Shown: positions 16,701-36,413 of the stretch, piece after piece
How positions within the stretch are numbered: the stretch's first letter is position 1
Layout of the letters: each line of letters opens with the position of its first letter
Source: Cyanophora paradoxa CCMP329
Taxonomy: Eukaryota > Plantae > Glaucophyta
Length of the DNA: 64,000 nt
Assembly: GCA_004431415.1 (NCBI GenBank)
Contig: QPMI01000095.1
Coordinates: 124,001-188,000 of the forward strand
Direction: 5' to 3'
Made by a program: the position numbers and the translations under genes
Notes under the pieces: generated by a model
Told to the model about the DNA's origin: nothing
The model's input: the letters and a program-made list of their open reading frames with translations, nothing else
Databases searched by the model: none

Positions 16701-19700
16701 CGCAGCCGGCGGCGGAGCGCAAGGTCGCCATCGTCCTCTACGGTGCCCCTCGCCGGCCCCTCCCGCCCCCGCCCCGGGCGCTGAGGGGGGGCAGGGTTCC
16801 CGCCGGGGTACGGGGCGGCGGGGACGGCGGCGCTGCTGAACGTCCCCAAGAGCCTCGTCGCCCTCCTCCGCGCCATGAAGGCGCGTACCCCCCCCCCCAG
16901 CCCCCCCACTCCCCCCGCCGCCCCCGCGCCCCGTCTCGGGCGCCCCGGGCCGACGCGGGACGGGGCCAGGCGGAGGGGTACGCGGTGGGGGACGTCCCCG
17001 ACGACTTCGGCGAGCGCCTCATCTCCATGTCCGCGTACCCCCCCTCAACCCCGCCCCGCCCCTGAGGCCGCGCAGGGTCAAGCACGCGGACGAGGGCACG
17101 CCCGACGTGCGCGGAGCAGCGCACTGGCTCGCCCGCCCTCGCGGCGGGCGGGGCTCAGGCGGGGGGGGGGGGGGCGGCAGCCGCTGGCGGTGGAGGGGGA
17201 GGAGGAGCGGCTGGCGGAGGCCGGCCTCGCCCCCGGCCTCGCCCGCGTCTCCGCCCAGGCCCTCGGCACGTGCGCCCGCCCGGGACCCCCGCGGCTCGCT
17301 CCTCCCCCGCCGCCTCCCCGGCCGAGGCGCGGGGGCGGGGCAGGTGGCTGGGCTGGCTCAAGGCGGAGCGCGTGAAGAAGGCGTGGGGCGGGCTCACCAC
17401 CTCGGGCATCAAGACCCAGGTCCCCCCCGCCGGCCCCGAGGACGGCCCCGCGGGGGGTGACTGGCCCCGGCAGGGGGACGAGCTGCTGGTGGGGGGCCTG
17501 CGGGCGGGGGAGGGCGTCTGGGTGGGCCTCCAGCCGCCCCTCGGCATCGCCGGCGACCCCATGCGCCTCCTCTTCGGTCCGGGCGCCCCTCCCCCCCGCC
17601 CCGCCCTCCCCCCTGCTGACTCCGGGGCCTGCGCGCAGAGCGGGACCTGACGCCGCACCCCCAGTACGCCGCCTTCTACCTCTGGCTCCAGAACGTCTAC
17701 AAGGCCGTGCGCCCGCCCCGGCCCCGGCCCCGCGGCGCGCCTGAAGGGCGGGGCAGGACGCGGTGATCCACTTCGGCATGCACGGCACCTTCGAGTGGTC
17801 CGCCCGCCCGCCCCGCCCCGCGATGCGGAGCTCGACGGGGCGGGGGCGGCAGGCTGCCGGGGAGCCCGCTTGGGAACACGGGGGACAGCTGGCCCGACGT
17901 CCTCATCGGCGACATGCCCAACCTGCGCGCCCCGCCCCGCCCCGCCCGCCCAGAGCGCAGGCCCCGGGCTCACCCACGCCCGCCCGCCGGCTCCGCAGGT
18001 ACGTGTACGCGGCGAACAACCCGAGCGAGTCGATCCTGGCGAAGCGGCGCGGCCTCGGCGTCCTCGTCTCCCACTGCGTCCCTCCCTACGGCCGCGCCGG
18101 CCTCTACAAGCAGCTCGCCGAGCTCCGGGCCCGCCACGCCCCCTCAACCCCCCTCTCTCTTCCCGGGCGCCTGACGGGGCGGGGCGGCAGGGCCTGCTCT
18201 CGGAGGCGCGGGGCGGGGACGCGTGTGACCCCGGGGCGGCGGCGGCGAACATGCCGCTCCTCTGGCCGGCCATCGCCACCCTCGTCAAGGACGCCGTGCG
18301 CGCCGCCGCCGCGCCGAAAGATCGAAGCTTAAGGCTGACGGGGGCGGGGGGCGGGGCCAGGGCCTGGACGCCGACTGCGCGCTGCCGGCCTCGGTCGAGG
18401 GCCCCGAGGACGCCTCCTCCCTCCAGGAGCGCCAGGCGCGCCCGCCCGCCCCGCCTCCTCGGGGCGGCCGCCTCCGACCTCCTCCTTCCCGCGCAGGAGT
18501 ACGTGGTACGGCTCTACGAGTACCTCGGCGTCCTCGAGAACCGCCTCTTCTCCTCCGGCCTCCACGTCCTCGGCGCCCGCCCCTCCCCAGCAGACGCGCG
18601 CCCCGCCCCGCCCCACGCCCCCCCGCGCGCCCCGGGGCCGCCTTCCCCATGCCCGCGCAGATGCGGGGGTACCTCGAGGCCTACTCGGGCGACGCGCTGC
18701 CCCCCGACGCCATCCTGTACCTCGCCAACGGGATGGACGCCGACGAGGCGCGCCCGCGCCCCCGCTCCCACCCCCGCCCTCGCCCCCGCCTGAGAGGGGT
18801 ACACCGTTCAGGTTCTGAGGAGGATGGGCGACGCGGCGGAGTCGGTTGACACAGCGGCGCTCGAGGAGGCCGTCCGAGTACCCCCCCCCCCCCCGCCGCC
18901 CCCGCCTCCGCCCGCGTACCCCCAACCGACGGCGTCAGGTGCGGGACCTGCTCGACGAGTGTCCCGAGGAGGCGAGTACCCCCCTGGCCACCCCCCGGAC
19001 CCCGTACCCGACGCCCTGCCTCCCGGGCCCCGCAGATCCGGAGCATTCTGAGGGGCCTGAACGGCGAGTTCATCCCCCCGGCCCCGGGCGGCGACCTCCT
19101 CCGCGATGGCCCGGGTACTCTCCTCGCGCCCTCTCGCCTCCCCCCCCCTGTTTCACGTACCCCCGCCAGGGGCGCTGCCGACGGGGAGGAACATCCACTC
19201 GCTGGACCCGTACCGGATGCCCTCCCCCGCGGCCTACGAGAGGGGCCGCGCCATCGCCGAGCAGGCCCGCCGCCTCCCCCAGCCCCCCGTCACTCCTTCG
19301 CCGACTCGCGCACCCCCCTCCCCCCGCAGCTCATCGAGCAGCACCGGGCCGAGCACGGCGGGGCGTACCCCGAGACCATCGCGGTGCTGCTGGTGCGTGG
19401 CCCCCGCCCTCTCGTCTCCCCGTGCCGGGCGCGACGCGCTGCAGTGGGGCCTGGACGCGATCAAGACGAAGGGCGAGGTGCGCGGGGCCGCCTCCGCGCC
19501 CTCTCGCGCCGGCCACCCACCCGCCCGCGCAGTCGGTGGGCGTGCTGCTCGGGCTCGTGGGGGCGCGGCCCCTCAAGGAGGGCACCGGGCGCATCGTCCG
19601 GCGCGCCCCCCGCCTTCGCCCCCGCCGCCCCGCGCCCGCGCTGAGGGCCGGCCTCCCGCCCGCGCAGGTACGAGCTGGTGCCGCTGGAGGAGCTCGGGCG

Positions 19701-22159
19701 GCCCCGCATCGACGTCCTCGGCAACCTCTCGTGCGCCCCCGCGGGGGCGCGCGGGCGCCGGCCAGGGCGGGGCGGGGCGGGGCGGCTCAGCGGACGGGGC
19801 GGGGCGGGGGCGCAGGGCATCTTCCGAGACAGCTTCGCGAACGTCATCGAGCTCCTCGACGACCTCTTCGCCCGGCCCGCCCCGCCCCGCCCCGCCCCGC
19901 CGTGCCGGACTCGCGCGCCGCGCTGAGCCGGGTGCGGCAGGGCGGCGGAGGCCGACGAGCCCGAGGAGCTGAACTTCGTCCGGTGCCGCCCCCGCCCCGC
20001 CCGCCCGCCCCCGCCCGCTCGGGCTGACGGAGGCCGCGGGGCGCAGGAAGCACGCGCGGGCGATGGCGGGCAAGGGCCTCGAGGCGCCCACCGCCCGCCT
20101 CTTCTCGTCCGCCCCGCCCCGCCCCGTCCCGCCCCCGTCGGGGCCGCGCGGTGGGCGACGCCGGCGGGGCGGGCGGGGCGGCAGGAACCCGGCCGGGGAC
20201 TACGGCTCGATGGTCAACGAGCAGGCGAGCGCGCTCCCTCCCTCCGCCCCGCCGGCCTCACGGGGCGGGGCGGGGCGCGGGCAGGTCGTCTCGTCGACGT
20301 GGGAGAGCAGCAGCGAGCTGGGCGCCACATGGGCCTCCCGCAACGCCTTCAGGCACGCCCCGCCCCGCCCGCCCTCCCCTCGCCCCGTCCCGCCGCCCGC
20401 GCTGACGGCGCGGCGGGGCGCAGCTACGGGCGGGCGGACAAGGGCGCCAACCGCTCCGAGGTGCCCTCGCGGGCACCCCTCGCGGGCGGGCGGCGGCGGG
20501 CGAGGCGGGGAGGGCGGCAGGTGCTGGCGGCGCTGCTGGAGACGACGGACGCCGTCGTGCAGGAGATCGACTCCGTCGAGTACGGCCTCACCGGTGCCCC
20601 CTCCCATCCGCCCCGCCCCGCCCGCCCCGCCGGCGCCTCCAGAGCGAGGGCGAGCCGATCGCGACTCCGCCCCCAGACATCCAGGAGTACTACGCGAACA
20701 CGGGGGCCTGGTGCGCGCCGCCGAGGACGTCCGGGCGGCCGCCCCGGCCCGAGCGGCGCCCCCGCCCCTCCGTCAAGGTCCCCCCCGCCCCCCGCCCCCG
20801 CCACGCACCTGGCCCCTGGCCCCGGCGCTGACGCGCTGCGGCGGGGGCGGGGCGCAGGCGAAGTTCGTGGAGTCGTTCTCGCGGGACTCGACCCCGCGCC
20901 CCCTCGACGACGTCCTCCGCGTCGAGTACCGGCGCGCCGGCCCCCGCCCCGGGCCGGCCGCCCTCGCCGAGGCGCCCGCCGGCTCTGACCTCTCCCCCGG
21001 GCGGGTGCGGGGGGCGGCAGGACGAAGCTGCTGAACCCGAAGTGGGCGCAGGCGATGGCCCGCCAGGGCTCCGGCGGCGCCTACGAGATCTCCCAGGCCC
21101 GCACCCCGCCGCCCCGGCCCCTCCGCCCCCGCCTGACGGTTCCGGCGCCGGCCGGCGCGGGGCGCGCGCAGCGCATGACGGCGATGATCGGCTGGGGCGC
21201 CACGACGGGTCCGCCCGCGAGCCCGAGCCGGAGCCCGCGCCCGAGGCGCCGCGCTTCGCCCGGCCGCAGCGCCCCTCACGCGCGCGCCCCGCGGCAGGCT
21301 TCAAGGAGACCTTCGTCTACGACCAGGCGCGCCCGCCCGCCGGCCCGCCCCGCCCCTCGCCGCCGCCGCTGAGGGGCGCAGGCGGCGGAGACGTACGCGC
21401 TGGACGAGGAGATGGCGCGCCGCCTCCAGGTCCGCCCTGGCCCCCGCCCCGCCCGCCCCGCCCCGCCCCTAGCGTTGGCAGAGGCCCCGCCCGGTCGCCG
21501 CGGCCGGTTCGGCTGCAGAAGCCGACGGTGGGGCGGGGCGGGCCCCCCGCAGGCGGCGAACCCCGAGGCCTTCCGCAACGTCCTCGGCCGCCTCATCGAG
21601 GCCCACGGCCGCGGTCCGCCCCCGCCCGCCACGCCCCGCCCCCCCTCCCCGCCCCCTTTCCGTCAGAGTCTGGAGACCGAGAGATCGCGAACTCAAGTTT
21701 GTCAGAGTCATTCCTCTCTCGGCTGACCTGCGCGCGGGGCGCGTGGGGCAGGCTTCTGGGAGCCGAAGGAGGGGGTCCTGGAGCGCCTGCAGGCCATGTT
21801 CGAGGATGCCGAGGTCGCCCCGTCCCGCCCCGCCCCGCCCCAGAGCCGGCGCGGGCCCTCTAGGTCTTGCGATTGAGGGCCTCAGGCGTCCCCCGAGGGG
21901 CCGCCCCCCCGACCCCCGCTCCCTGCGCCTTGCCTCTGCAAAGGCCCCCCGGATCCGCTTCGGGCCCCCGCCGCCAAAGCTCCGACTCTCCCTGGGCCTC
22001 AGGGCCTGAGGCCTCTGCCTAGCTCGCTTCCCCGCGGCCCGCCCTCCTGACGCCTCGGGTGTGGGGCGGGGGCAGGACGTGCTGGAGGGCGTGGCGGAGC
22101 GGCCGGAGGCGCCGGCGGAGGAGGCGGAGAGCCCCGCCGCCGCCGGCCTCGCCGCCTAG
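13720..22159 (+). CDS. chlH: Magnesium chelatase subunit H, BchH/ChlH2-type isoform, plastid-targeted, very many short introns
   Basis: HVVIIAGFESFNK|ALY, VFESALELMALT, GYLSFLKAGPKLLKYVP, IYGYWNAGG, DAVIHFGMHGTFEW, YAANNPSESILAKRRG, LPTGRNIHSLDP, LLNPKW; ends DVLEGV..AA* at 22157-22159. Start codon uncertain. Confidence 0.92.
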
Positions 22160-22839
22160 GCCCGCGGCCGCGTAGCCGTACTGGCCCGGCGCCAGTGCAG
22201 TTGGCCGTGTGCGTAGGTACCCGTGTGCTTAGAGCCGCTTCAATTCAGGGCGAAGCCTGCAAAAGACACGCTGCGGCAATTTCACAGGGCAGCACATTAT
22301 AATTAAGCACAAAATGAATGGACGTCGACAGATTTTAAAAACGATGCTACGATCGCGATGCAAAAAGCAATAGTAAGGATATTATAATTCTTCTTCTTGT
22401 ATTTCTATCTTGTATATATACTTGAGAACTACGTTACCTTCCATGGCCATGGCCATGCCCACTCCATGCGTATGGGTCCAGGCGGCCAGACTGGCCCCAT
22501 ATGAACAGCCCCTCTACCGCTGGGCCGGCGCCCTGCCGCCCGAAAACAGGACCCGTCTAGGCCCCAGTTCTGCGCGCGATCGCGAGAGACTGGTATACGT
22601 ACACGTATACGTGTATATATACGTATTTATACAATGAGAACTACATGCAGCTGATTGCTATAGCTATGCATATTCCAGGATCATGATGCCCCGTACTTCA
22701 CATAAAGCAAATTAAATTCTGTAGCTGTACATGAAAAACGACGTTGACGTCGCGGGAATTTCAAGTATTGCGCATGCGGCACATATAGATTTTTAAAGGA
22801 GGGACAATATATATGCCGTGATGATGCAAGTACAAAAAT

Positions 22840-25650
22840 TCAGAGCTCAATTGTGGCCAGCTGCAGGGTGGCCGGAGAAGCAGCAGGCGATCGGGGGCTC
22901 CGAAAATCGGCGCTTGCAATTGTCGCGGACTGCGGGCCTGCAGCTGGCCGCGGCCTTAAGCTTGGGTGGCCGCCGGACTGGGAACCGTTCACGAGAGAGT
23001 CGCGATCGCGGCCGGGCTGCAGTTGCACGCTCGCGCTCGCGATCGAGGGATCGCGAAGCTCGGGGTGCACGTGGGCGATGCCGACGGGCAGGGGGCTGAC
23101 CACGACTGAAGCGGCGAGCTTGAGCGCTGCAGCCGAAGCGCGCTGCTCGTGACTGTAGAGGGAGCCGGCGTCTTGCTTCTTCGCGATCGCTGCCGGGTCG
23201 TCGTGGCCATGGTTGGCATCACCGGCACCGGGCGGCACTGCAATTGAAACGCGCCGAGCGCTCGCGCCGGCAGCCGCGGCCGGCTGCTGCCTAGGCCTGG
23301 CGCCCGCGACCGCGACCGCGACCGCGGGCCGAGGCCCGCGGACGGCCTTGTCCTTGCGGTCGCTGCCGGCGTCGAGCTGGAGTTCTTTGAAGCGCGCCCG
23401 CTTCTCCGCCGCCTTCTTGGCTGCAGCCCTCGATGTGAGGCCAGAATATCAATCGGAATTTCAATTTTAAGGGTAGGGAGCCCCAACCTTCGCGGTCGGC
23501 CCGCATCCTCATCACACACGAACGGCATGTAAGCTGCGAAGAAGGTCACGCGCCCGCCATCCGTGTATGCAGCGCCGGGCGGCCCATGGACGCACGTTGT
23601 AGATGGCGCGAAGGGCGCGGAGCTGGTTCACGACCAGGACGGCCATCGAGAGCATATTCACCACCATAACGCCCGTCGACACCTCGTCCTGCAACCAATT
23701 ACATTGCGATTAGTCGCTGAAATAGAAATTTCAAAGGTATCGGATAGCGAATCGGGCGCTCCGACCTTCTTGTAGTTTGCGTTGCGCATGAGCATGAGAA
23801 TGAGGAGCACGCTCTGCAGCCCGTTCGATGTCATCTGTACAACGTTCTCGACTCTGCGAAGGCTCGATCCGTGAGCTCCAGTAGCATGCATATGCGTGCG
23901 GAACACCGTCGGCGCGAAGACTTGTCGCCGCACGCACCGGTCGATGAAGGGACGGCTGAGGGCGAGGTAGCTCAGGTACGCGAGGTTCACGCCCAGCAGC
24001 GCCCCGAGCGCGGTGCCGGCGTTGGACGAGGCTCCCCGCCCCGCGTGCACGCCTGTGAGATGTCAGATGGCACTGGATGCACAGGAGCGCACGCCTTGCC
24101 CTATCTTCTTAAGCGAGCGGACTGCACTGGGGCGCGCGCACCGAGGATCAGCGAGCTCACGACCTTCTTGAGCGAGTCCAGCATGGCGGCCATGAACCCC
24201 TGCTCGCAAATGTCATGATCAGTAATCCAAAGGTGTGCTGCCTTCAGGAAAACCAATCATCGGACCAGGCGGGCGTAGGCGAAGGCGTCGAACAAGGCAG
24301 AGTAGCGGTTCATAAAATCATTCTGGTCGTACTCCGTCTGCGCCGAGGGTCGATATCAATTATAATATTCGTGCAATACAATTGTAATTTGTGGATCCGA
24401 AGCGTCTAGAATCGCTTGAAATGCGAACCTGCTCCCAGAATCCGCGGCGGGGGTGCTTGAGCGCATTCCAAAAGCGCTGCCACCTCGTCACGCGCACGTC
24501 AGACGGGTCCACAGACTTCGTTTCGAGCTTCTCCGCGATCCGGTCCTCTTTCTACACGTTCGCGCGCACGTGAGCACGAGCTCAAGCGCGAGCGCAAGTG
24601 CGGCGCGCGGCCAACCGTGAAAACGATCGTCTGGCCCATGAGACTCGTCACGAGCATGAACGAACACCCGATGAGGAAGAAACCGGGAATGATGACCTGC
24701 GCCCAGATTACGGCGATGCTCAACGTTGAACCTGCAGCTGTTTCGTATTGACGTACAATCATGATGACGGCGATAGGCGGTCCCCACGACGGCCCCGCGT
24801 TGCCGACCGCCGCAACGCGGGCAGCGTGCAGCACGAGCCCGGGGGAGCACATCATAATGAAGCACAGCTCCAGGAATGGAAACCGCTGCAAGGCCGGTCA
24901 TGGGTAAACAAAGAGCAAAGCCGCGAACGCGTGCGGCGGTCCAGTCACGCACGAAGAGCGGGGGAAGGCGCCCGTCGGACCACTTCTTCAGGGCGGTCCG
25001 GCAGAGGGCTGTGGCGATCCAGCGCAGGATCCAGATCCCAAAGAAGGCGATCGAGGTCCAGAAGATGACCGTGCTGAATTCGTCCGCGTACCTCTGCGCC
25101 GCCGTCCTGCAAGTGCGGATTACTCCGGATCCTGTTTTCGCGGCGCTGCGTCGGAGCATGCATTGCGCGCTCACCGGCTCGAGGTGTTCTGTACCCACGG
25201 CGCGTTCGTCGGCCGCATCAGCGCCCAATCTAAGGGGCAATCACAGTGAGACGACTGCTTGTGGCATTGCCGCGAGCAGAACGATAGAGCGCACTGAGGG
25301 AGTCGCCCATCGCCGACTGGGCCTCCGAGGTCGAGTCGCCGCCGACATACGAGGTCGAAGCGAGGAAGCTCACGTGCTGCGCAACGCGTTCGTCAGCTCA
25401 CTCGGAATGCGAGACCGCGACAGTACACGCATGTATGGCTCGCGCACTCCGATGATTCCCTGCGGAGAGGAAGTATGGATGTCAGCGCACGCGCGAGTGC
25501 TGGTGTCGGCCAAGGAGGCGAACGCGGTGCGGGGGCAGCTGAGCGCTGGGAGCGCGCGCACCACGATGCCAGCCCCGCGGGCCTCGAGGCGCTCCAGCTT
25601 CGAGGCCTCCACCACCTCGAGCTCCTCCAGTTCCTCTGATATCGATCATG
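22840..25650 (-). CDS. Multi-pass membrane protein, TRP-C-terminal/FLC-like, spliced; 5' end not identified
   Basis: Serial hydrophobic exons: FSTVIFWTSIAFFGIWILRW, FPFLELCFIMMCSPGL, VIIPGFFLIGCSFMLV, LLGVNLAYLSYLALSRPFIDR|VENVVQ, VMVVNMLSMAVLVV; the RPF.D...N pattern recalls TRP-like C-terminal domains. Confidence 0.5.
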
Positions 25651-25678: not shown

Positions 25679-26512
25679 TTATACCAAATTAAAGACTACG
25701 ACATAGCATGAAAAGCGATCACCTTCGTCATTTGCATCAATAGTTGAGCTTTGATATCGATCATGATCGAGAGCAGTTGCTTCAGCTACTGACGTTTTAG
25801 TCACTTCAGATTTCGACTTGCTTTTGACGCCGTTGGCCGTTGCGGGGGCCATTGCGGGAGCCAAGGTTTTTGCGGTTTTCAAATCCGTGGTGTCAACAAC
25901 GATGACTCGAATCTCCGGGCAGTCTCCCGCCAATCGCGATGTCGATTGCAGTGTGAACGCTGTCGACGGCTTCGCTTTGCGCGACCGCTTCTCACGGCCA
26001 GCATCTTTAAACTCGTCTTTGACGACGGGTGTCCCCAACGCCTTAGGAGAGACTGCAGCTGCTAGCGCTGCTGCGGAACTTGACCGACGCCGGGCCCCCC
26101 AGTTGTAAAAGTGGGACGATGGAATGTACTTGCGTGCAGAGTGGGCGATGCGCCGATCACTGGTGCGTGTACCAGTCGCGATCGGAGTGCTGTCCACGCT
26201 CGATCTGGCCAGGGCACGTTCCGCCGCGACGGCGGCAGTCGCGGCAGCCGCCGCGGCAGCGTGATCGAACGCCCCGGCGTGCATGCTTGAACGCCTCCGC
26301 TGCTGCGCGAGATGAAGGTAGATGTCACTGGCGGAGAGTGGCCCTTGAGACCCGCGGCGCCTCGAGCTCGAAGCGACCGACAACACACTGCCCCGCCGCC
26401 GGACATCACTTGCGCATGACGTCGAACCTGCTCCCGCCGACATGGCGCTGGATCGTCTTTGGCCGCGGGTCCCGGCATGCGCATCCGCCTGTTGTATACG
26501 CATGGACCTCAC
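25679..26512 (-). other. Host-like low-complexity ORF or gene fragment abutting the AT-rich island
   Basis: 277-codon Ser/Arg/Ala-rich frame (RRGSVLS, RRRSS) with host-like composition; the frame is open only up to a TAA at 26588-26590, near the island edge. Confidence 0.35.
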
Positions 26513-26773
26513 ACCCGGGCAATTCCGCTTCGCTCCATTGCCCCCGATTCCATGCGTTTCCAGTGTATACCTCCAGCCCCTCTTCAGTTAATTCACCTTG
26601 TACGTCTACGAGACCCTTATTCCCAGGTCTACCAGACTCGGGTCGGAGTCTTAACAAAGAAATATCTAACGACTATTCAGGGCAGAGCTGACAACTTGAA
26701 TAGACGAAGAGGAGCGCTGCCCCCTTGAGCGCGGTCTGTAGAACAACGTGGCAGAATAGGCTAGGCGATATTA

Positions 26774-26875
26774 ATGAGTACAGAGAAGCTAAACGAGGAA
26801 ACGTGTTAAGCTCTAGCTAGATGTAATTGATGTGTACAGAGAAGCTAAACGAGGAAAAAGCGTTAAGCTATAGCC
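26774..26875. repeat. Two-copy direct repeat, 56-bp period, near the left end of the island
   Basis: Identical 24-mer GTACAGAGAAGCTAAACGAGGAAA at 26778-26801 and 26834-26857, each followed by GTTAAGCT(C/A)TAGC. Confidence 0.92.
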
Positions 26876-26914
26876 GCACGTAAGGACGGGCCCCCAGAGC
26901 GGTCTGCTGCGGCC

Positions 26915-27259
26915 TCATTCCACTTGATCTGGTTGCTTTTCCGAAACTGGAGTCTTCTCCTTTCTGAAACTTGATAGCAGGGACTTCTTTCTTTTCAGGG
27001 GCTTTGGGATATTTGGGGATGGCCAAGACGATCTTCGGTTATCAGAATCAAGCCACGGTACAGGTGAGTCAGATCGCGTAAAAGGAGAATTGGACCTAGA
27101 AGTCCCGGGTGTGTTATTAGGCGATAGCTGAGTATCAGGGGTGCGCGACCCCTCAGTGTCAGATATTTCGAGGTTAATAGTTGTCTCGCAGCAACTGCAT
27201 TTCAATTTGCTGGTGACGTTGAGATGGAACATGTCCATGCATTTACGGAGCAGATCCAT
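26915..27259 (-). CDS. Hypothetical viral protein, 114 aa, KCSCC motif and Ser/Pro-rich basic tail
   Basis: Intronless ATG ORF, co-directional with and 33 bp downstream of the fibre-like gene. Confidence 0.65.
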   Translation of the reverse strand: MDLLRKCMDMFHLNVTSKLKCSCCETTINLEISDTEGSRTPDTQLSPNNTPGTSRSNSPFTRSDSPVPWLDSDNRRSSWPSPNIPKPLKRKKSLLSSFRKEKTPVSEKQPDQVE

Positions 27260-27292
27260 CTACAAGGGGTAGTATATATAAAAACAAAGATT

Positions 27293-28129
27293 CTATGGGT
27301 TGGGATCAGCCCCTCCAATTGGAAAGTAACGATTCGAATTGAAGGTCTCACCATACTTGACCCCGCTTGCAATCACATCTGTTCTTTCGGCAAATAGAAT
27401 AATTTTGTAGGCGCCCATAAGCGTAGCCCTCACAATAAACTGGTAATCTTCAACCCCCACTGGAGTAGAATGGAAAGCAACACCAAAATTGTCAATAGGA
27501 TTGATTAAAACAGCTATGTTTGGCCGGAGAGCATCATTTCTCCTACAAAGGAAGTAGATATCCGGAGGAATATCAACAACACTCTTGAAATGGTTTCCGA
27601 GTGGCTGAACGTTATCTACGATTGATGTTTGCTCATTTATGTTTAGCGTGAAGACTTTGATGATATAAGGCAAATTCATACCAGGAACATACGTTCTGAT
27701 TCTTTCATTAGTGTTTTCAGGGTTTGGTTGATCATTAACAAAAATAGGGGCGCAAGCAGCTCCGCCCACTCGAAGGCCATCTCCAATATATGCACCTCCA
27801 GACCTGCAGGTCACAGCCCCTGTTCTTGATTCATAGGTAAACGTGTTAACCTTGTTAGCGTCGTCATAGCTATCAGGATCCCCATAATGTGCATTAAAGT
27901 TTGCATTAGTTACAAGGAGATTAGTCGTTTTAATAGTGCCATTATTTTTGTCGCAGCGGACTTCTCCTAAACGTAATATGTGATTCTCCCGGAATGTGTT
28001 TAATGTTGGCTGTTGCTCTGTAGACTCTAGGCCAGGCACGTCGTCGGAAACGGCATGCTGCAGAACATGATTTACTGGTGCAGCAAGGGTTAAAGTTGGA
28101 ACAACAATTCTTTCAACAGCTTCAGCCAT
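27293..28129 (-). CDS. Fibre-like paralogue 4 (278 aa): shared N-terminal domain plus non-C1q head
   Basis: HAVSDDVPGLESTE..ILRLGEVRCDKNNGTIKTTNLLVTN..GAVTCRSGGAYIG is shared with three neighbours; C-terminus RTYVPGMNLPY..GAYKIILFAERTD is shared with paralogue 3. Confidence 0.8.
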   Translation of the reverse strand: MAEAVERIVVPTLTLAAPVNHVLQHAVSDDVPGLESTEQQPTLNTFRENHILRLGEVRCDKNNGTIKTTNLLVTNANFNAHYGDPDSYDDANKVNTFTYESRTGAVTCRSGGAYIGDGLRVGGAACAPIFVNDQPNPENTNERIRTYVPGMNLPYIIKVFTLNINEQTSIVDNVQPLGNHFKSVVDIPPDIYFLCRRNDALRPNIAVLINPIDNFGVAFHSTPVGVEDYQFIVRATLMGAYKIILFAERTDVIASGVKYGETFNSNRYFPIGGADPNP

Positions 28130-28191
28130 TATTGTTATGACTTAAAGAAAATGAATGTATAGAATAACAAGGCAACAGGAAGGCTAGACAG

Positions 28192-28719
28192 ATGGAGATC
28201 GAAATTCCCAATGGAGCGATTGCAATTCCAATTTACGGGCAAAATGGGATAGTAGCACATTCTTTCATACTAGCAGCTGATGCTGAACTAGTTAATGAAA
28301 AACGTTGGCAGCTCGATAAATATGGTTATGCTATATGTAGTATTATTGTAAACGGAAAGAGGACAACAATGAAAATGCATAAGTTAATTGTAGGATCAGT
28401 CAACCAAGGGTTCTCTATTGATCACATCAACTGTAATAAACTAGATAACAGACGTGAAAACCTTCGCCTTGCTACAAAAAGGCAGCAAAATTTGAATCGA
28501 TTGCTTCAAAAAAATAATTCAAGCGGGTTTATAGGAGTAAGCTTTTACAAATCTATGAACAAATGGCAAGCTAAACTTAGAATTAATGGTCGAAAGAAGC
28601 ACATTGGATATTTCTCAACTGCGGAAGCTGCTGCTAAAGCTCGTGATCAGTATGCACTTGAGCACACTGCTGAAGCTGACCGTCCATTTATACGTCTAAA
28701 TTTTCCAGCTGAAGCATAA
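28192..28719 (+). CDS. HNH endonuclease with C-terminal AP2 DNA-binding domain
   Basis: MHKLI..IDHINCNKLDNRRENLRLAT..QNLN (HNH-type) followed by SSGFIGVSFYKSMNKWQAKLRINGRKKHIGYFSTAEAAAKARD..LNFP (AP2). Confidence 0.93.
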   Translation: MEIEIPNGAIAIPIYGQNGIVAHSFILAADAELVNEKRWQLDKYGYAICSIIVNGKRTTMKMHKLIVGSVNQGFSIDHINCNKLDNRRENLRLATKRQQNLNRLLQKNNSSGFIGVSFYKSMNKWQAKLRINGRKKHIGYFSTAEAAAKARDQYALEHTAEADRPFIRLNFPAEA

Positions 28720-28729
28720 ACGTTCTTTC

Positions 28730-29578
28730 TCAAGCTATAGGATTTTCAGGACTGATCTCGTCGTACATATTATTCAGTGCCGGATCAGGGTTTAATCCTC
28801 TAGTGGCCACTGATGCAGCCACATCGGAGCGATATCCGATTATTAGGATAGAATATCTGCCTATAGCAGTAGCATATAAATCGAAAAGATGCCTTGTATT
28901 AATATTACGAACTACATATCCCCGCCCAGCGTGTCCTAGACCCTGTACAAAGAATGTATAGACATGGCCTATTTGATCATTTTGATCCTGACAGAGCGAT
29001 TGAAGTGCCTTGGGGATTTCTCTGTTTGAAAGCAACCTCTCACCATCCAGACCATTTGGTGTACTTGAATTAGCTATTGTTATCTCAACTTCTACTAAAG
29101 CCTGTGCATAGGGAAGGTCACAGCAAGGTACATACATGCGAACTCGTTTACGATTTTCAGCATTTTCTAATGAAAAGTCTGGGACATCATTGATGGCAAT
29201 CGATGATGATAGGCCCCCACTAACTCGGCAGCCTCCTAAAATAGCTGCTCCCCCAGAGCGCACAGTGAGGGCAGCAGTGTTTTGATCATAGTTTATGCTT
29301 CGGAGGTCAACACTGTACGAATCAACTCCCCCTGTTATGGGCTGGGAGAAATTCGCGTTAGTAACTAATAATCGTGTTGTTTTTACAACCCCAGAGTTTT
29401 TATCTGCGCGTAATTCTTTACACCGAATCACAGATCGCTGATCAAACGCATTAGTTGAGTTTGGACGCTCAGTGGACTCTAATCCAGCAATAGCATCGCT
29501 AACTTCATGCTGCCTCATATGGATGGCTGGGGAGCCCAGCGAGTAGATAGGTAGTTGGACCCGATTGTACTCGGTCAT
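28730..29578 (-). CDS. Fibre-like paralogue 3 (282 aa from the ATG): shared N-terminal domain plus non-C1q head
   Basis: HEVSDAIAGLESTE..VIRCKELRADKNSGVVKTTRLLVTN..AALTVRSGGAAILG; C-terminus RMYVPCCDLPY..GRYSILIIGYRSD. ATG 29578 chosen by alignment with the paralogues. Confidence 0.8.
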   Translation of the reverse strand: MTEYNRVQLPIYSLGSPAIHMRQHEVSDAIAGLESTERPNSTNAFDQRSVIRCKELRADKNSGVVKTTRLLVTNANFSQPITGGVDSYSVDLRSINYDQNTAALTVRSGGAAILGGCRVSGGLSSSIAINDVPDFSLENAENRKRVRMYVPCCDLPYAQALVEVEITIANSSTPNGLDGERLLSNREIPKALQSLCQDQNDQIGHVYTFFVQGLGHAGRGYVVRNINTRHLFDLYATAIGRYSILIIGYRSDVAASVATRGLNPDPALNNMYDEISPENPIA

Positions 29579-29632
29579 TTGATAGAACCGCGAGAGAAAA
29601 ATAAATGAGGTTGCAGACAAGAGATAGCTTCA

Positions 29633-29896
29633 CTACTCTTCTGTGACATTGTTATACTCGATGCCTTTCTTTACTGTTCCCCTTTGGAATGCCTGTAACA
29701 CAATGGCTTCCTTTGAGGTTGGTATTTGAACTCCTGATGAGATGCAAGATTGAATCTCTTTTTGAACAATCTCCTCAATTGCAATTCTTGCCCTGTTATG
29801 AACAACATTATCAATCCAATCCTGAACAGAAGCAGCGCAATATTCCATTCCCAAATTTTCGGTATCAGATAGAACCACGTGGTATATATTCGACAT
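29633..29896 (-). CDS. 87-aa phage-like small protein, putative fibre partner or chaperone
   Basis: LSDTENLGMEYCAASVQDWIDNVVHNRARIAIEEIV..QIPTSKEAIVLQAF resembles, from memory, small proteins encoded after C1q tail-fibre genes in aquatic phages; starts 20 bp after the C1q gene stop. Confidence 0.72.
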   Translation of the reverse strand: MSNIYHVVLSDTENLGMEYCAASVQDWIDNVVHNRARIAIEEIVQKEIQSCISSGVQIPTSKEAIVLQAFQRGTVKKGIEYNNVTEE

Positions 29897-29916
29897 TCTA
29901 TATTACATGTAGATAA

Positions 29917-30939
29917 TTAAATTATGCTCAGCAATTCGCCACTAAACGTTGTGAATTCTGAAATGTAAGTATCAACAGCATAAATAGAGACATTATCCCC
30001 GGCTCCAAGTCTAAGTATTGCGCTCAAATTGATTGTTTTGTTGGTTACTGTTTGAGAGTTGTTTACCCTAAAATTGAATTCTGTTGAAACATTTGCATCA
30101 TTTACTTTCAGATCTACACTCACAGATGAGGTAACAATACTATAAGAATTAAGAGAGAATCTATAATCTCCACTAATAGGCGCTGTAAATTTCCCTTCTA
30201 CTACATCGAATGAGTTGGTATTATCAAAGAATTCATGCAACCAATTCGTAAGGCGCCCATATACTCCACTTCTTGTTGCTACACCAAACCCAACACAAAA
30301 TCGAGGTTGGGTTTCTTGCTTCAAATAAAAGTTTGCTGCGATTGTAAGACCCCCTGCATCAATTCGTGCGACTTCTGTGCTATTTCGTTTCAGAATCAAA
30401 TCTACATTTGCTCCTGTATCTATTTCAGGTGTTTGTATCTTTGTGGTTGTGGTCATCACAGGGACTGTATAAGTAGGAACAAAAAGCCCACCATTTGCAT
30501 TCACAACACCTGTAAATGTTGTTGTTCCTGAAATTGAAACATTTGTAGCTGAGAGTGTTCCATTCACAAAAGCTCCCGAACCTATCCATGCTCCACCTGA
30601 TTTAACAACAAGTGCTGCATTATTTTCTGTCCCATCAAAAGTAACAATTTGTGGTGTGGTCACCCCACCTGCATCATCATAAATAGCTGCATCAGCAACT
30701 ACACCACCTGTTAAAACCTGATTCTTGTTACTTACGATTAATTGTGTGGTTCTTATTTTTCCAGCATTTCTATCACATCGAATTTCCTTGCATCTGATAA
30801 TTGAATTTTGAGTAAATGAATCTGCCCCTGTGGTCTCTGTGCATATAAATCCAGGTATTGCATCTGTTACTGTGTGGTTCAGTTGATGCAATTTCGGTGC
30901 TGCATAACAGAAAACAGGAACTGCGATTTGGGTAGCCAT
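29917..30939 (-). CDS. Fibre-like paralogue 2 (340 aa) with C-terminal C1q domain
   Basis: Shared N-terminal domain (DAIPGFICTET..IRCKEIRCDRNAGKIRTT..ALVVKSGGAWIG), beta-rich stalk, then PRF..FDNTNSFDVVEGKFTAPISGDYRFS..LRLGAGDNV..TTFSGELL (C1q consensus). Confidence 0.88.
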   Translation of the reverse strand: MATQIAVPVFCYAAPKLHQLNHTVTDAIPGFICTETTGADSFTQNSIIRCKEIRCDRNAGKIRTTQLIVSNKNQVLTGGVVADAAIYDDAGGVTTPQIVTFDGTENNAALVVKSGGAWIGSGAFVNGTLSATNVSISGTTTFTGVVNANGGLFVPTYTVPVMTTTTKIQTPEIDTGANVDLILKRNSTEVARIDAGGLTIAANFYLKQETQPRFCVGFGVATRSGVYGRLTNWLHEFFDNTNSFDVVEGKFTAPISGDYRFSLNSYSIVTSSVSVDLKVNDANVSTEFNFRVNNSQTVTNKTINLSAILRLGAGDNVSIYAVDTYISEFTTFSGELLSII

Positions 30940-30961
30940 CTATAAAGTCCCAACAAAAAGT

Positions 30962-32008
30962 TTATAATCTACTGATGAGATGCCCCCCAAAACAGGTAAT
31001 ACCTTGTATTGTAGCATCATATTGTATGGATGATGTCCAGGTTTGTATAACATTCACAAATTCGTTCGCATATACAGCAAAAAAAGCCTCCATATGAACA
31101 CTCCGCCTTCCATTGTAAGTTGAAAATTCTTGAACCGATTGAGGGGAAAGAGCCAAATCATTCTTTCTAAATGCAACTCTACACTCACCTGTGGATGATG
31201 CTGTTGACATTTGAACAGTAAAGAAGAATCTATAAATTCCTGAGACAGGTGCTGTAAAAGTGCCTGTGGACAATGTGATATTATTGCTTGCATCTACAAG
31301 AGTTCTATTAAAAGTGAATCTCCTTGTTGGTAATGTAGTTCCCACAGTAACTGCTGATGTTGAATAATTAACAATACAAAACCGAGGGTGAGGAGCTTTC
31401 AGATATTTAATAAGATTTATTGAAGGGGAGACATTGTTTATGGTTGCTGTAACCACTGTATTTCTCTTAATAGTAAGTGCATCCGTTGCTTCAATTTCAG
31501 GTGTGTTCAACATTGTGGAAAAGACACCAACACCAACTGAAAAACTACTCGCATTATACCCACCCTCAAAATTTATTGGACTCTCAAATATTCCACTTTC
31601 AGCATTTAGTATGGATGCTGTTACTGTTCCATTCACCTTTAATGCCTCTCCAAAGTATGCTCCTCCACTTTTCACCACAAGAGCGGAACTATTGCTTGTG
31701 TTACCAAAAGTAAATATCTGTGCTGTGGTAAATCCACCTACATTATCGTATATTGCTGAATCGGGGACAACCTGACCCGCTTGAACCTGATTTTTATTCG
31801 AGATAATAATACCTGTGGTTCTTATCTTACCATTATTGCGATCACATCGAATTTCTTTGACTCTGAGAATATTGTTCTCTGTAAAAGATGTATTGCTTGT
31901 GGTTTCAGTGCAAATAAAACCGGGTGTTGAATCAAAGACTTCATGAGAGGTGCTATGTAGTGATTTCGCGGCGAGTTCATAGTTTGGGATCTCTAAAAGG
32001 GAGGTCAT
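30962..32008 (-). CDS. Fibre-like paralogue 1 (348 aa from the ATG) with C-terminal C1q domain
   Basis: DSTPGFICTET..LRVKEIRCDRNNGKIRTT..ALVVKSGGAYFG, then PRF..TGTFTAPVSGIYRFFF..TCFGGHLI. ATG 32008 chosen by alignment. Confidence 0.88.
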   Translation of the reverse strand: MTSLLEIPNYELAAKSLHSTSHEVFDSTPGFICTETTSNTSFTENNILRVKEIRCDRNNGKIRTTGIIISNKNQVQAGQVVPDSAIYDNVGGFTTAQIFTFGNTSNSSALVVKSGGAYFGEALKVNGTVTASILNAESGIFESPINFEGGYNASSFSVGVGVFSTMLNTPEIEATDALTIKRNTVVTATINNVSPSINLIKYLKAPHPRFCIVNYSTSAVTVGTTLPTRRFTFNRTLVDASNNITLSTGTFTAPVSGIYRFFFTVQMSTASSTGECRVAFRKNDLALSPQSVQEFSTYNGRRSVHMEAFFAVYANEFVNVIQTWTSSIQYDATIQGITCFGGHLISRL

Positions 32009-32016
32009 CTTTATAA

Positions 32017-33807
32017 TTACGAAATAGTTAAATTGCGACAGCAATGTAATGGATTGTTACAGTTTTGCCGAGTCAGCGCGCCTGGCTCTGGGCCCGTAAC
32101 CTCGCGAGTTCTGTATGCTTCACCAGAGACGAGCACAAGCCCTCCGATCCGTGCTCTGTCGAGCAGCGAGCGCAAGTGCGAGGCCAGCGTCTCAAAAGTT
32201 GAGCGACTCATAACCTGGGGTGCTTGAGAAAAGCAAACACACTCCAGCATGAGAAATCACACCAGGTAAAGGGTACGGGTCGCGAGTCCGTTTGACGAGT
32301 TCGATGGGGACCTTGAGATGGCTTTTGAAGGCGTGACGAGCGCGTGCTGAAGGCCGCGGGCAACGTGCACGAGCAGCTTCAGAAGATTCTGGACCAGAGG
32401 GAGAGGGGGCACGACGCCGAGGAGGGCAAGCGACGACTGCTCAACCGCCTGCATAACCACCGCCAGAACGGACTCCACGGCGTTCGAAGATTTCAGAACG
32501 GATCTCAGCGTCTCAATCGACTCCGCAAAAAGCCTGGGGGCGGAAATAGGTTCAGGTCGACAACGGTGGGACGCTTTGCGGACGGCGGACGGACCGAACA
32601 CGCTCAAGCCACTCAAGCTGATGCCCAAGAACAGCAAAGCCCGAGCCGAGAATGACGACAGAGTCCATCGCGACGGATCCCGCAACCTGCACGGGCAACT
32701 CAGCCGCAGATCAGCGTCGACGTATTAAAGTATGGCGCACTTCCATCGTCTTCAGAACACGAAGAAGTGCGCTGCGGGAGTCGATTGGGAGCCGGAGAGC
32801 GCTCTGGAGCTCGGCTATCGCAAGGCTAAGTGCTCGGTCAGGCTCCATGCTGCCCAGAGAAGAGCCGAGCGTCAATGATCCAAGACGGGACGAGATATCC
32901 ATCTCAGGCGCCGGCGATGACGACGGAGACGTCGTGCAGGTCTCCGGCGGCCGCTTGTGCCAAAAAATGCAATTCTTCCCGAAAACACAAAACCCTGCGC
33001 ACGTTTTAAGGAAAGACCAAAACCCGGAAAAGAGGCGGAGAAGCTTGCCTTCCTGCTCACAAAGAAAATTAGAAACAAATTAGCCAGCGAGGGGGAGGGG
33101 GAGGGGGCGGGTATACCTGGAGGAATCGCGTGCAAGGCCTTTGCTTTGGTTTGTAGAACGGCGCGGCCGGCCGCTGCTCCTCCTCCGAATGAGCGAAGTA
33201 GCACTCCTGGGAACCGTGCTTGCAGTACTTCTCGAGGAAATGCTGTCGTTCCCACGGAAACCGATTCAGAAATGTTAAAAACCAGCATCGCATACTCTCG
33301 TACATGTTTGCACAAGATGGTCTTGCAAGACGGGCCCTTGGCGCACGACCCCCGCTTCTGAACGTGAACGCAGGGGCCCTCCCAGGGGGCCGCAAGGAGC
33401 GGGCCCGAGTTCGACGGAGAGTGAGAGGCGCCACTCGCCGGGAGATTGCTGGCCGCCCCAAGCCGCGCACCGAACGACTCCAGCAGCGCCGCCATCTGCG
33501 AACCGGTCAAGGTCAATGCCGGAAGCCCAGTCCCCGTCGGCTAGAAGCGCGGCGGACCTCTCCGGCGAGCGGCGTCTCGGCAACGGTCTCACGCGCCGTA
33601 GCGTCCCCACGACGGTCGCGTACGTCGATAACCTGTCGCCGCCTCAGGTCGAGACCCGGACCGCGGAGACGCTGCGGCGCGCACCAGGTTCGCGGCGCCT
33701 TGCATCATGTCTGACATAGACGGCTCGGGCACTTCCGTGATGCCGGCGCCGTTCGGGGTGATGCTCAGCCTCGCCGCCGCGAGCATCGCATCCGTCGCGG
33801 GGCCCAT
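32017..33807 (-). CDS. CCCH zinc-finger protein gene, spliced, probably 3'-truncated by the island
   Basis: CCCH-like units PCVHVQKRGSCAKGPSC, HFLEKYCKHGSQECYFAH and PCTRFLQ|GFCVFGKNCIFWH, followed by helical exons; the last frame runs into the AT-rich DNA and stops at 32017. Confidence 0.6.
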
Positions 33808-35545
33808 TGCTTACTGCCTACGGCGCCGAACGATCGGCTTGTGATCAGAAGCGACGCTGGCAAGGCTCCTGTGGTTCGGCCGCGTTCCTCGCAGCTGCGC
33901 TAGCTCTAGCGCGCGCGCTCGAGCTCGGGCCCCTTAATGACGGGGGCCGCTGGCGTATCGAAGCCGATATCGATGCTGGGAGCGAGATGACTGCTGCGCG
34001 GACTGCGGCGACTGCAGCTGCAGCAGCGAGGACAGGACTGAGGAGAAACGATACCCGCTTTTTTCTTTGACTGGGCAGACTTTTTTTCTTGACTGGGCAG
34101 TCCCGTGCAAGTGATGGGGGGTACAGGCTTGCTATCAGGCCGCGCGCGGCGATGGCTCCGGCGCGCGCACGCGGCGCCGCGCGCGCCGGCGCGCATTGCG
34201 AGCTGGAACGCTCTTATGCCTTCTCGCCGAGGGTACCGACCGACGTCGAAACAGCTTAGCGGCGGCAGCAGATGCAGAAGTGATGCTGCTCAGCGCTTTG
34301 GCTCGCTCTTTGCTCGCTAGCGCTTTCGCTTTTTTGGGCAGAACTCGCTCGCTGGGCGCAAGCGCAGGAAGCTCGCAATCGACGAGCCGGCACAGTCGCG
34401 GGAGCGCTGTGCCGCGTGGAACGCGCTAATGTCCAGGCCCTGAGGCACCGGGGCGACGACTCACTGACACAGTGAGCGCTGCGGCGTGCTACCGGGATGG
34501 AGTAGCTATAGGGCACTAGTACTGCGGCATCGCCCTGCGCATGCAGAAATACATATAACTAGACTTTCGTAGGAATTAAGTCGACGTTACGACTTCATTG
34601 TTGTAAGTAATGCAAATCGATGCTGCGCTCTACATCTCAAGCTCAACTCTCAATTCGTGGGGATCTAGATCTAGATCTAGATATCGAAGAACTGTGCCAC
34701 AATTAACAGAGGCCACGTGCACGTACATGTGCACTCAACCAGTTTAGCGAACTTTCGCTTTCGGTTTTGCCGGTTTAAATTTTGCTTTCGCTTTCGGTTG
34801 TGCGGCAGGCCCTGACTCAGTGAAGTTTTGATTTCGATTTCAAATTTGGAGCTTTTCGATCTGACCCCCTTCACACTCCGGGCGCAGCCCGCAGGGCCTC
34901 CCCCCCAAGGTTCACAGAGTGCACGCTCACCGTGGCACAGGTGCACGTCGTCCCTCGCTCGTGCGCATGCAGGCGCTCCTCTAGGTGGGAGGCCCGTCGA
35001 TCCGATGATCGAGTGCGCATGGTTGCTTTGACTTCAAGGCTTGGATCTCAAGACCTTTCGATGTCGATCTGACCTTTTTCTTGCCCCGGTGGTCCCCCGG
35101 CCCAGAGCCCGTAGGGCCTCCTGGCCCACCACTGCCCAGAGAGGACCCCGGCCCTGTCGCCACAATTGCAAGACGCGATTTCCCACCGGGCGTGCAGGTC
35201 ACCGGGGGCCAGGAAGGGCCCGGCTGGCCAGTTTGCTGGTGGGCTGGGCCCGCAGCCGCGGCGGCTGCAGTGTAAGTATACATCCCACACTTGTAGCCCG
35301 GACTTGCGTTTTTAGTCACGATCAATTGCGGTCATAATCAAGAAATCTCGGGAAAAGGCTGGATCTGCCAGGCTGGCCCGTGGAATACGCATGAGCCTGA
35401 GCCAGTGCGAGCTAGCGCTCCTGGAGTCCAGCTTAAGCTTGCATTTCAGACACGACCCATGACATTTGGACGAGCTGTTCTGACGTCGACTAGCTCAGCG
35501 GCTAGCGCTGTGCCACAGTGCTCGGGGTCTTTGAATTGGAAAAAG

Positions 35546-35821
35546 AAGAAGAAGAGTATGTATAAGACACGCCCACTGGGCCAAGCCGGTTGAATTGGGT
35601 CCGACGGTCGTTTCGCCTTTCAAAAGTTTCGACATTTCCTTTGTGCCTTAGGCCTTCGGGTCCTTCGCCTTTCGTCAAAACCGTACAGCTGGCTTGGGCG
35701 TGTCTTATACATGCTATTCTTCTTAAGGGGGCTTCTTCTTCTCTTGTTACATGTCTTATACATGCTATACTCTTGTTCTTCTTTCCTTGGGGGCTTCTTA
35801 TACATGCTATTCTTCTTAAGG
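35546..35821. repeat. Inverted plus direct repeat cluster (TCTTATACATGCTAT unit); MITE or transposon-end-like
   Basis: 35546-35575 is the reverse complement of 35695-35724 (28/30 match); further direct copies at 35752-35768 and 35796-35821 (the latter is 26 bp identical to 35703-35728). Confidence 0.88.
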
Positions 35822-36413
35822 CTTCGCTGTCGACAACTTCCAAGGGCTCAGCGGCTCAGTTGCTGGCATGGATGTGTCTACTGCAGTTCTCTCTCTCTCT
35901 CAGTCGTATAAGCAAAGCGACTTTGCTGAGTCGATCGCAAGACTCTGAGATCGATCGAAAGAGAAAGGGGAGCCACACCCCCCTCGCGATCGAAGCCCGG
36001 AAGAAGAAGACGAGAGAGTCTACATCTGCAAGGCTGAGAAGAGCATGCATAACTTTTGCATCATGGCATAGTAGCTATACTGAGAGTCACTCCCCTTGAA
36101 ATCTTGGAGCTGAAGGGAGTCACTGAGTTCTCAGACTCTGCCAGGCTGAGAGGCTTGATCTTGAAATCCAAATGACAGCCTGCCAGCCGAAATCAAACGA
36201 AGTCTTTCAGAGACCGGCTCGATCTCAGGGTCTGAGTGATACTGAGAGACCAGTGAACGCAGGAGCTTAAACTTGAAATTCAAATTACAGTACTAGCCCG
36301 CCGGTCGAAAACCCTCAGCCTGGCAGCCCGAATCAAACTGCAGCCCCTCAGACACGGTTCATGAGCCCAAATCAAATCACAAGTCCGACTCTCATGCATG
36401 ATCGAATCCAAAT

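Follow-up and report, generated by a model that had tools for sequence, protein, structure and literature searches.

An AT-rich block occupies positions 26490-32067 of the window (the whole 64,000-nucleotide stretch of Cyanophora paradoxa DNA analysed here) and is flanked by host genes. Its GC fraction is 0.402 across 26918-32065, against a mean of 0.651 and a minimum of 0.545 among the other 5.15-kb stretches of the window, and the change-points best fitted by composition fall at 26581 and 32067. Seven open reading frames (ORFs), none of them interrupted, cover 95% of 26915-32067 with spacers of 33, 62, 10, 54, 20 and 22 bp; they are intronless, whereas the neighbouring host gene carries introns of 48-119 nt, as seen from joints in presumed-RNA contigs, and a Shine-Dalgarno-like 4-mer lies within 20 nt of the start in only one of the seven. 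In each of these respects, the sharp compositional steps included, the locus is as an earlier note had described it. The features are:

26490-26917, no strand assigned: repeated terminal segment, 50% GC, beginning with TG (depth step, variant contigs)
26915-27259, reverse strand: Ser/Pro-rich ORF, 114 aa, of no family (Pfam, PHROGs)
27293-28129, reverse strand: predicted fibre, 278 aa, with the shared N-terminal domain and a beta-sandwich head (alignment, VIA, complex model)
28192-28719, forward strand: HNH endonuclease with an AP2-like C-terminus, 175 aa (PF13392, E 4.5e-11; phrog_99, E 1.8e-39)
28730-29578, reverse strand: paralogue of the 278-aa protein, 282 aa (hhalign probability 99.8)
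29633-29896, reverse strand: member of a phage-type family, 87 aa (36 homologues, 45-64% identity)
29917-30939, reverse strand: predicted fibre, 340 aa, with the shared N-terminal domain, a shaft and a C1q head (PF00386, E 5.9e-08)
30962-32008, reverse strand: predicted fibre, 348 aa, of the same layout (shared N-terminal domain, shaft, C1q head; PF00386, E 2.8e-06)
32026-32067, reverse strand: last 12 codons and stop of what is likely an eighth gene of the element, truncated at the junction (translation)
32066-32067, no strand assigned: right junction, where element and host overlap by 2 nt (TG); absent from all 8 runs
32066-33400, reverse strand: spliced host gene, cut mid-exon (5 intron joints)

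Searches with Pfam and PHROGs returned no capsid, ATPase, polymerase or integrase among the seven ORFs or among the 80 open frames scanned in the flanks (of 130 found; those of at least 120 aa and below 66% GC, from 22 kb onward), in agreement with the earlier statement that replication, packaging and capsid genes are lacking. The same searches gave no A32-type packaging ATPase, no pPolB, primase-helicase, rve or tyrosine integrase, and no double-jelly-roll major capsid gene, although these profiles may miss the divergent capsids of this host; none of the island ORFs is of capsid size (published capsids, when whole, are 413-465 aa). Hallmark genes of the NCLDVs likewise found no match in the island or the scanned flanking frames. 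At 5,578 bp the island falls below the 14-40 kb range of complete Polinton-like viruses (PLVs), which also bear terminal inverted repeats several hundred bp long and duplicate 5-6 bp of target site. Neither a paired terminal repeat, likewise not found in the earlier reading, nor a target-site duplication was found in the window, and the two ends differ in their 6-mers, the right one being the non-native end.

The left edge, formerly placed at 26560, lies instead at about 26486-26490, where the repeated unit starts. The terminal segment of about 430 nt contains an internal direct repeat of 42-49 nt (D6) and has no inverted partner in the window, the far end of the element being missing; it is likely one terminal (inverted) repeat whose partner is absent. 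TG-first ends tend to be left by rve-type integrases. A reading of the segment as a long terminal repeat (TG...CA) was rejected: a second copy is lacking, retro genes are missing, and at 26917 the other copies diverge. A contig linking segment and host is listed in one run: in run X2 a single-copy contig (26225-26515) enters the segment by 26 nt, below the 31-nt bar of the tool. The junction-spanning check proposed in the earlier note came out weakly positive on this side.

Island sequence is present as many diverged copies in the host DNA. Its depth, made up of many base variants, is far above that of the flanks in all five DNA runs, and both flanks are single-copy (depth ratio 0.87-1.07). 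The median is 32, 28, 22 and 22 times single-copy in runs X1, X3, X9 and X14 (range 2.5-177 times), and in run X2 depth along the block is uneven, at 7-235 times; these values are sums across overlapping contigs, not copy numbers, and long contigs taken singly reach only 11-21 times over the 348-aa gene. The island is not single-copy, something that the earlier reading, made from the letters of this stretch alone, could not reveal. In other copies the 87-aa and 340-aa genes have different neighbours, seen at loose contig ends. Presumed-RNA contigs hold short pieces of variant copies at 2-5 times, which have no bearing on expression, as well as a deeply covered variant of the terminal segment; no RNA data set is listed as containing the stretch.

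At the right edge the island, contrary to the earlier claim, is not intact: only the 12 last codons of a further frame are kept, and other copies carry on beyond 32057 and 32067, at loose contig ends, with AT-rich coding-like sequence. The flanking exon is 100% identical to the C. paradoxa protein P0026. In the runs, the host gene is represented by presumed-RNA records of 1455-2177 nt, with the 5 intron joints, and by DNA contigs of 2196-2235 nt; the 3' part that is missing from the window amounts there to about 0.7 kb of mRNA and more than 1 kb of DNA, and this continuation has no match in the window. Beyond the junction the host gene continues with other, non-island sequence in all five DNA runs and all three presumed-RNA runs. 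The right join is therefore missing, at contig level, from every run examined, which is the outcome that the earlier note had associated with a chimeric assembly. Because the host gene is whole in all eight runs, the join is either an assembly error or a deletion confined to a single lineage; we lean slightly towards a mis-join, while an end-joining deletion in one lineage comes a little short of an even chance.

Four of the ORFs have in common an N-terminal domain of about 125 residues and differ in their heads, two of which are C1q domains and two weakly lectin-like. The domain is undescribed and has no match in Pfam or the PDB. By hhalign the 282-aa and 278-aa proteins are 36% identical over 244 columns, and the head of the latter weakly resembles H-type lectins and phage fibre tips (VIA Z 5.5-6.9, below 8). 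As a homotrimer, the 278-aa protein is predicted with a complex score of 0.73, compared with 0.01 for the best control (at least 70% of contacts agreeing between runs, pLDDT at least 57); the mark on this scale is reached by 21 of 30 solved homodimers and none of 23 monomers, a two-copy calibration outside which trimers lie, and the score may stem from the model having memorised solved fibre structures. Monomers were modelled poorly (mean pLDDT 42 and 51), and Foldseek with the monomer model of the 278-aa protein gave low TM-scores in BFVD and nothing at E<=0.001 in the PDB.

Among the matches listed, the named relatives of the shared domain number 19 proteins of C. paradoxa (25 accessions), spread over 19 contigs of different names; one of these proteins lacks the domain itself. 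Environmental relatives are a handful only. No relative was confirmed in GTDB, IMG/VR, phage records or metagenome contigs, and the 340-aa protein had no tblastn match in 50,697 phage records. A scan with P0006 returned 43 viral loci, matching chiefly its C-terminal domain, and a profile of the shared domain had no match in 45 collected loci; the best Atlas score of the domain, 0.87, is a lead only. Two candidates were discarded, GTDB locus L046 as a chance word inside an unrelated enzyme-like ORF and P0009 as a chance match outside the shared domain. Within the 348-aa gene in run X2, the anchor part stands at 159 times single-copy and the head at 16-17 times, and in a second family the anchors are 87-94% identical and the heads different. 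We tentatively suggest, as a possibility somewhat short of even, that the Cyanophora proviruses form a genome-wide fibre library in which a trimer-forming anchor is joined by recombination to exchangeable heads (C1q, H-type-lectin-like or a phage-type domain), such that reactivated particles would vary in binding; with it goes the equally tentative proposal that the anchor is common to at least two element families at about 35-40% identity. A literature search found no report of C1q heads on PLV fibres.

In the 175-aa ORF the HNH_3 match is above the cutoff and the AP2 match (PF00847) below it. Depth over this gene is 2.5-3.9 times single-copy, against the block median of 22-32 times, so that few copies carry it; no contig joint corresponding to an HNH-free allele was observed. 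The gene is likely a homing endonuclease insertion, the class of comparison being the I-HmuI-like HNH-AP2 enzymes, which combine the two domains and are distributed patchily among alleles. The 87-aa protein, which scores 0.95 in the Atlas to Uroviricota clusters and whose relatives sit after a C1q-tipped gene (L002) and fibre-like genes (L001), is likely a fibre accessory or chaperone. Such phage relatives of the HNH, 87-aa and C1q-head genes, together with the unsupported right junction, might suggest contaminating bacterial or phage DNA joined by the assembler. We consider this very improbable: many variants occur in all five host runs, in much the same proportion to host DNA, the sole GTDB match was the chance one to L046, the phage records gave nothing, no Shine-Dalgarno pattern is present, and the closest named relatives are host-genome proteins. 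The reading of the earlier note, which a match to a contaminating bacterium or prophage would have refuted, is supported on this point.

The island has the marks of an endogenous dsDNA-virus fragment in a protist, namely dense intronless virus-type genes, non-host GC and many copies in host DNA. The island is probably the end of a repeated AT-rich element, likely an integrated PLV of C. paradoxa, and is best read as the fibre arm of one of its already-reported proviruses. With capsid, ATPase, polymerase and integrase genes all absent from the fragment, the case for PLV parentage is indirect. PLV insertions often differ in GC from their surroundings, and PLVs bear phage-like fibres. PLV-type capsids are reported for C. 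paradoxa (PMC10120064, PMC12220804), with 366 capsid-gene (MCP) matches in two clusters of 272 and 94 (PMC10120064 Table S4), as are giant-virus elements (PMC12344493), so that the earlier expectation of an uncharacterised virus was overstated. By our count of the columns of Table S6 in PMC12220804, 40 of 156 glaucophyte elements carry HNH_3, 85 of 156 an rve integrase and 139 of 156 a PF04665 ATPase. The former proposal of a partial PLV, virophage or NCLDV integration is supported as to a viral-type origin and as to an incomplete element lying in an algal chromosome; the island is not intact and not unique.

Given those giant-virus elements, the block could alternatively be part of an endogenised giant virus (Nucleocytoviricota), the fibre genes of which had multiplied by duplication across the genome; neither HNH-AP2 nor fibre genes are confined to PLVs, and the PLV core genes are absent from the block. 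This is unlikely, however, as tens of variant copies and a short repeated terminus abutting single-copy host DNA fit an integrating element of small size, the PLV-type capsid matches cited above come from this host, and the shared domain is without a relative in IMG/VR. Still less likely is a non-autonomous satellite, made of terminus and fibre cassette, with core genes never present or long lost and moved by full PLVs. The lack of core genes here, the uneven depth in run X2 and the change of neighbours that the 87-aa and 340-aa genes show in other copies would fit it, yet the present copy stops within a reading frame, other copies continue into AT-rich coding-like sequence, and a second terminus is missing here, so it could not be excised.

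The earlier note had also considered a selectively retained attachment module or decoy. All seven ORFs are open, and the presumed-RNA contigs contain the variant pieces and terminal segment described above, but a young insertion would have open frames anyway. This frame-broken block is one of many variants, its arrangement is missing from all five DNA runs, and the join breaks a host gene which every run, the three presumed-RNA ones included, shows whole; moreover, CpG observed/expected is 0.65 in the island versus 0.97-1.23 in the flanks, and silencing methylation is enriched on viral-origin genes in this host, according to PMC12344493. A host-kept, expressed module is accordingly highly improbable.

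On the preferred reading of a PLV fragment, a full-length copy would have integrated TG-first at about 26490, and an HNH homing endonuclease would have entered a minority of copies. The four paralogues are predicted to form trimers. Their shared N-terminal domain, the constant part, would likely dock on the particle, and the heads, which vary between C1q and lectin-like, would likely bind the surface of a cell or helper virus. The remainder of the element and more than 1 kb of the host gene would have been lost at the right join, and the fragment on its own is likely without function and silenced. The locus itself is minor. It is a fragment, its element class has been catalogued in C. paradoxa before, and its right join, which also cuts a host gene short, may be an assembly error. 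The part worth keeping is the fibre family, with its domain and swappable heads. This family provides a marker for viruses of glaucophytes and a testable way into PLV choice of host cell or helper virus.

Among known systems, the phage cassette at L002 has the same gene pair in the same order, a C1q-tipped fibre followed by a gene of about 88 aa, and the tips of AP22 gp53, the Pam1 tailspike and R2 pyocin have folds similar to those of the island fibre heads. Unlike phage cassettes, the island has a eukaryotic host, lacks phage structural or lysis genes, and carries an N-terminal domain without a phage relative in any search. The PLVs of Tetraselmis (bioRxiv 10.1101/2025.10.09.676808) and Gezel-14T (as cited in PMC12220804) are likewise integrated in an alga and have their fibre and carbohydrate-binding genes clustered on one arm; they have one tail-fibre gene, however, where the island has four paralogues joined by a common N-terminal domain, and they have been shown to reactivate, whereas the island shows no sign of activity. 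Set against the endogenous PLVs of C. paradoxa itself, the island copy differs in being 5.6 kb long, with a single terminus and without genes for a capsid, an ATPase, a polymerase or an integrase; C1q, moreover, occurs nowhere in the text or supplements of PMC12220804. What those PLVs (PMC10120064 Tables S1, S2, S4; PMC12220804 Table S6) share with the island is the host species, a multi-copy state, dense intronless genes, an HNH_3 gene in a minority of elements, and fibre genes of phage-like type, of which one is reported to end in a tip of the H-type lectin kind (PMC12220804).

The island lies within a locus whose principal features are as follows.

26490-32067 (approximate left edge): AT-rich island with seven open reading frames (ORFs), named here by length
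26490-26917: repeated terminal segment at the left edge
32066/32067: right join between element and host sequence
32066-33400, minus strand: spliced host gene

The compositional break described in the earlier note is real: GC content is 0.402 between 26918 and 32065, whereas equal-sized stretches elsewhere in the window average 0.651 and never fall below 0.545; change-points lie at 26581 and 32067. Its account of tightly packed genes also holds, the seven ORFs being separated by spacers of 10-62 bp and covering 95% of the block, as does its remark on Shine-Dalgarno signals, which are nearly absent (an SD-like 4-mer at one of seven starts). Searches of Pfam and PHROGs bore out the reported lack of viral core genes, since capsid, ATPase, polymerase and integrase families had no match in the seven island ORFs, nor in the 80 of 130 flanking open frames that are below 66% GC, from 22 kb on. 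We regard the island as an endogenous virus fragment, likely of Polinton-like virus (PLV) origin; descent from a giant virus is improbable, and from a satellite family more improbable still. CpG is depleted within the island (observed/expected 0.65), which may be a legacy of the virus itself; C. paradoxa genes of viral origin are described, in the available part of PMC12344493, as enriched for repressive CpG methylation. At the island starts (26915-32008), AG lies directly upstream in four of seven cases and TATA-like words precede several; judged from sequence, these are possibly a common viral promoter or start context.

The 278-, 282-, 340- and 348-aa ORFs, predicted fibre proteins, have in common an N-terminal "anchor" domain of about 125 residues (pairwise identity 32-60%). 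An anchor profile searched exhaustively against 1.84 billion representatives yielded nine hits. Four of them are singletons of environmental or Logan/ENA provenance, located on short contigs, and another four are the heads of C. paradoxa clusters (19 proteins listed, on 19 differently named contigs). The cluster proteins constitute a second family: anchor identity is about 33-41% to the window's proteins and 87-94% within the family, and the C-terminal parts differ among members; C1q occurs in two of these proteins, P0007 (below cutoff) and P0016, and the C-terminal domain of another member, P0006, is also present in 43 viral contigs. The ninth hit, P0009, was dropped as an anchor relative, being a chance match outside the domain.

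Two of the window's C-terminal "heads" are C1q domains by Pfam, with matching solved structures, while that of the 278-aa protein is modeled as a beta-sandwich. Its best structural match is the Pam1 tailspike tip (Z 6.9, rmsd 2.1, 69 aligned), followed by Helix agglutinin (Z 6.3, rmsd 3.2, 87 aligned), a pilin (Z 6.1), discoidin I (Z 6.0), AP22 gp53 (Z 5.5) and the R2 pyocin fibre (Z 5.2); because every match falls below Z 8 and the pilin scores equally well, these likenesses serve only as a lead. Modeled in three copies, the 278-aa protein gave a complex score of 0.73 against 0.01 for the best control, the score mark being one that 21 of 30 solved homodimers and none of 23 monomers attain, in a calibration that three-copy jobs lie outside. 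Predicted contacts involve residues 63-134 and 206-248, with at least 70% agreement among runs and pLDDT of at least 57. The fibre arm is predicted to encode trimers whose tips vary on an unchanging anchor.

Among the remaining genes, the 87-aa ORF has 36 relatives and scores 0.95 to phage clusters; in viral contig L002 a relative comes directly after a C1q-tipped gene, an arrangement shared with the island, and this gene order points to a putative accessory protein of phage origin. The 175-aa ORF, on the strand opposite to the other genes, encodes a nuclease with an HNH_3 domain and a weakly matching AP2 domain, and the 114-aa ORF matched no family in Pfam or PHROGs.

Sequence words from 25.5-33 kb were 60-64% present in 14 of 24 listed sequencing runs, all under one organism label, and contigs from eight runs (five DNA, three presumed RNA) were compared. 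Median summed island depth relative to single-copy flank was 32, 28, 22 and 22x in four runs, values that are not copy numbers, individual long contigs across the 348-aa gene standing at 11-21x and variable regions inflating the sums. Hundreds of base differences make diverged island copies evident. Depth is lowest over the HNH gene (2.5-3.9x), suggesting that a homing nuclease resides in a minority of copies, and rises above 100x both at the 87-aa gene and where the 348-aa gene begins. For the latter gene, run X2 gave 159x over the anchor versus 16-17x over the head, while the step is small or nil in the 278- and 282-aa genes. This uneven depth, together with altered gene neighbours in other copies, hints at head shuffling.

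At the left end, a single-copy X2 contig (26225-26515) matches with zero differences and extends 26 nt into the segment beginning with TG at 26490; this overlap, below the 31-nt bar for a bridge, is the pattern expected of 31-mer assembly at a repeat edge. The segment 26490-26917 contains an internal repeat, occurs in variant forms and has no partner within the window. A full-length element would have integrated at about 26490. A divergent version of the terminal segment (26673-26916) appears in presumed-RNA runs X16 and X20, where its depth is close to that of the host gene alongside (385 vs 653 and 31 vs 37), and an element terminus located elsewhere may be transcribed.

At the right join, other copies run beyond 32057 and 32067 as loose contig ends; only the final 12 codons of a further element frame are left in the window, and that frame, judged by eye, stays open in both loose ends. 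On the host side the join falls in mid-exon. One 90-aa exon of this gene matches EukProt protein P0026, assigned to Cyanophora paradoxa, at 100% identity, which establishes this glaucophyte as the host. Each of the five DNA runs has a single-copy contig (2196-2235 nt) that crosses 32066 into >1 kb of non-island sequence, as does a spliced transcript in all three presumed-RNA runs, continuing for about 0.7 kb in two of these records; a 25-nt piece of this continuation has no match in the window with up to three mismatches. Because left and right flank depths are equal (ratio 0.87-1.07) and the species is reported to be likely haploid (PMC6704402, in the portion available), a second allele is an unlikely explanation of the conflict. 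Element and host have 2 nt in common at the join, as could arise from end-joining in a single lineage or from a chimeric long read; the two are not separated by contigs, from which rare variants are dropped. The rest of the element would have been lost here through deletion or mis-assembly, and with no second terminus and no core genes the window copy is incapable of replication or excision.

Several other observations concern neighbouring sequence. A 50-nt stretch (33156-33205) recurs beyond the missing sequence in all five DNA runs (joint 33205 to 32066), so the complete host locus contains two direct copies of a short sequence some 2.2 kb apart. The P0026 model stops at 32257, inside an intron spliced out in presumed-RNA contigs, and likely lacks the true C-terminus. 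A second high-copy repeat (35150-36000, ~45-100x flank depth, many joints) has 30-nt inverted arms at 35546-35575 and 35695-35724 and is possibly MITE-like; 23340-25600, which has ~2x flank depth and differs between runs by base and indel variants, is likely a duplicated host segment; and the GC-rich gene at 13700-22200, split by many short introns, is likely ChlH because one exon matches CobN/Mg-chelatase.

Elements of this kind are already known, and already reported from C. paradoxa. The accessible part of PMC10120064 gives capsid hits for the species that total 366 and fall into two clusters, and that of PMC12220804 describes phage-like fibres, one in C. paradoxa tipped with an H-type lectin, and tallies 156 glaucophyte elements (HNH_3 in 40, rve integrase in 85, PF04665 in 139, tyrosine recombinase in 0). 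In Tetraselmis, as far as the consulted portion of a preprint relates (bioRxiv 10.1101/2025.10.09.676808), fibre genes are gathered on one arm and a giant virus triggers reactivation. Unlike a complete PLV, the island spans 5.6 kb and lacks capsid, ATPase, replicase and integrase, and is therefore classed only as a fragment; by analogy, it would work like the attachment arm of C. paradoxa or Tetraselmis-type PLVs. As far as literature and database searches reach, what is new is the N-terminal domain common to these fibre proteins, together with its combination with C1q heads.
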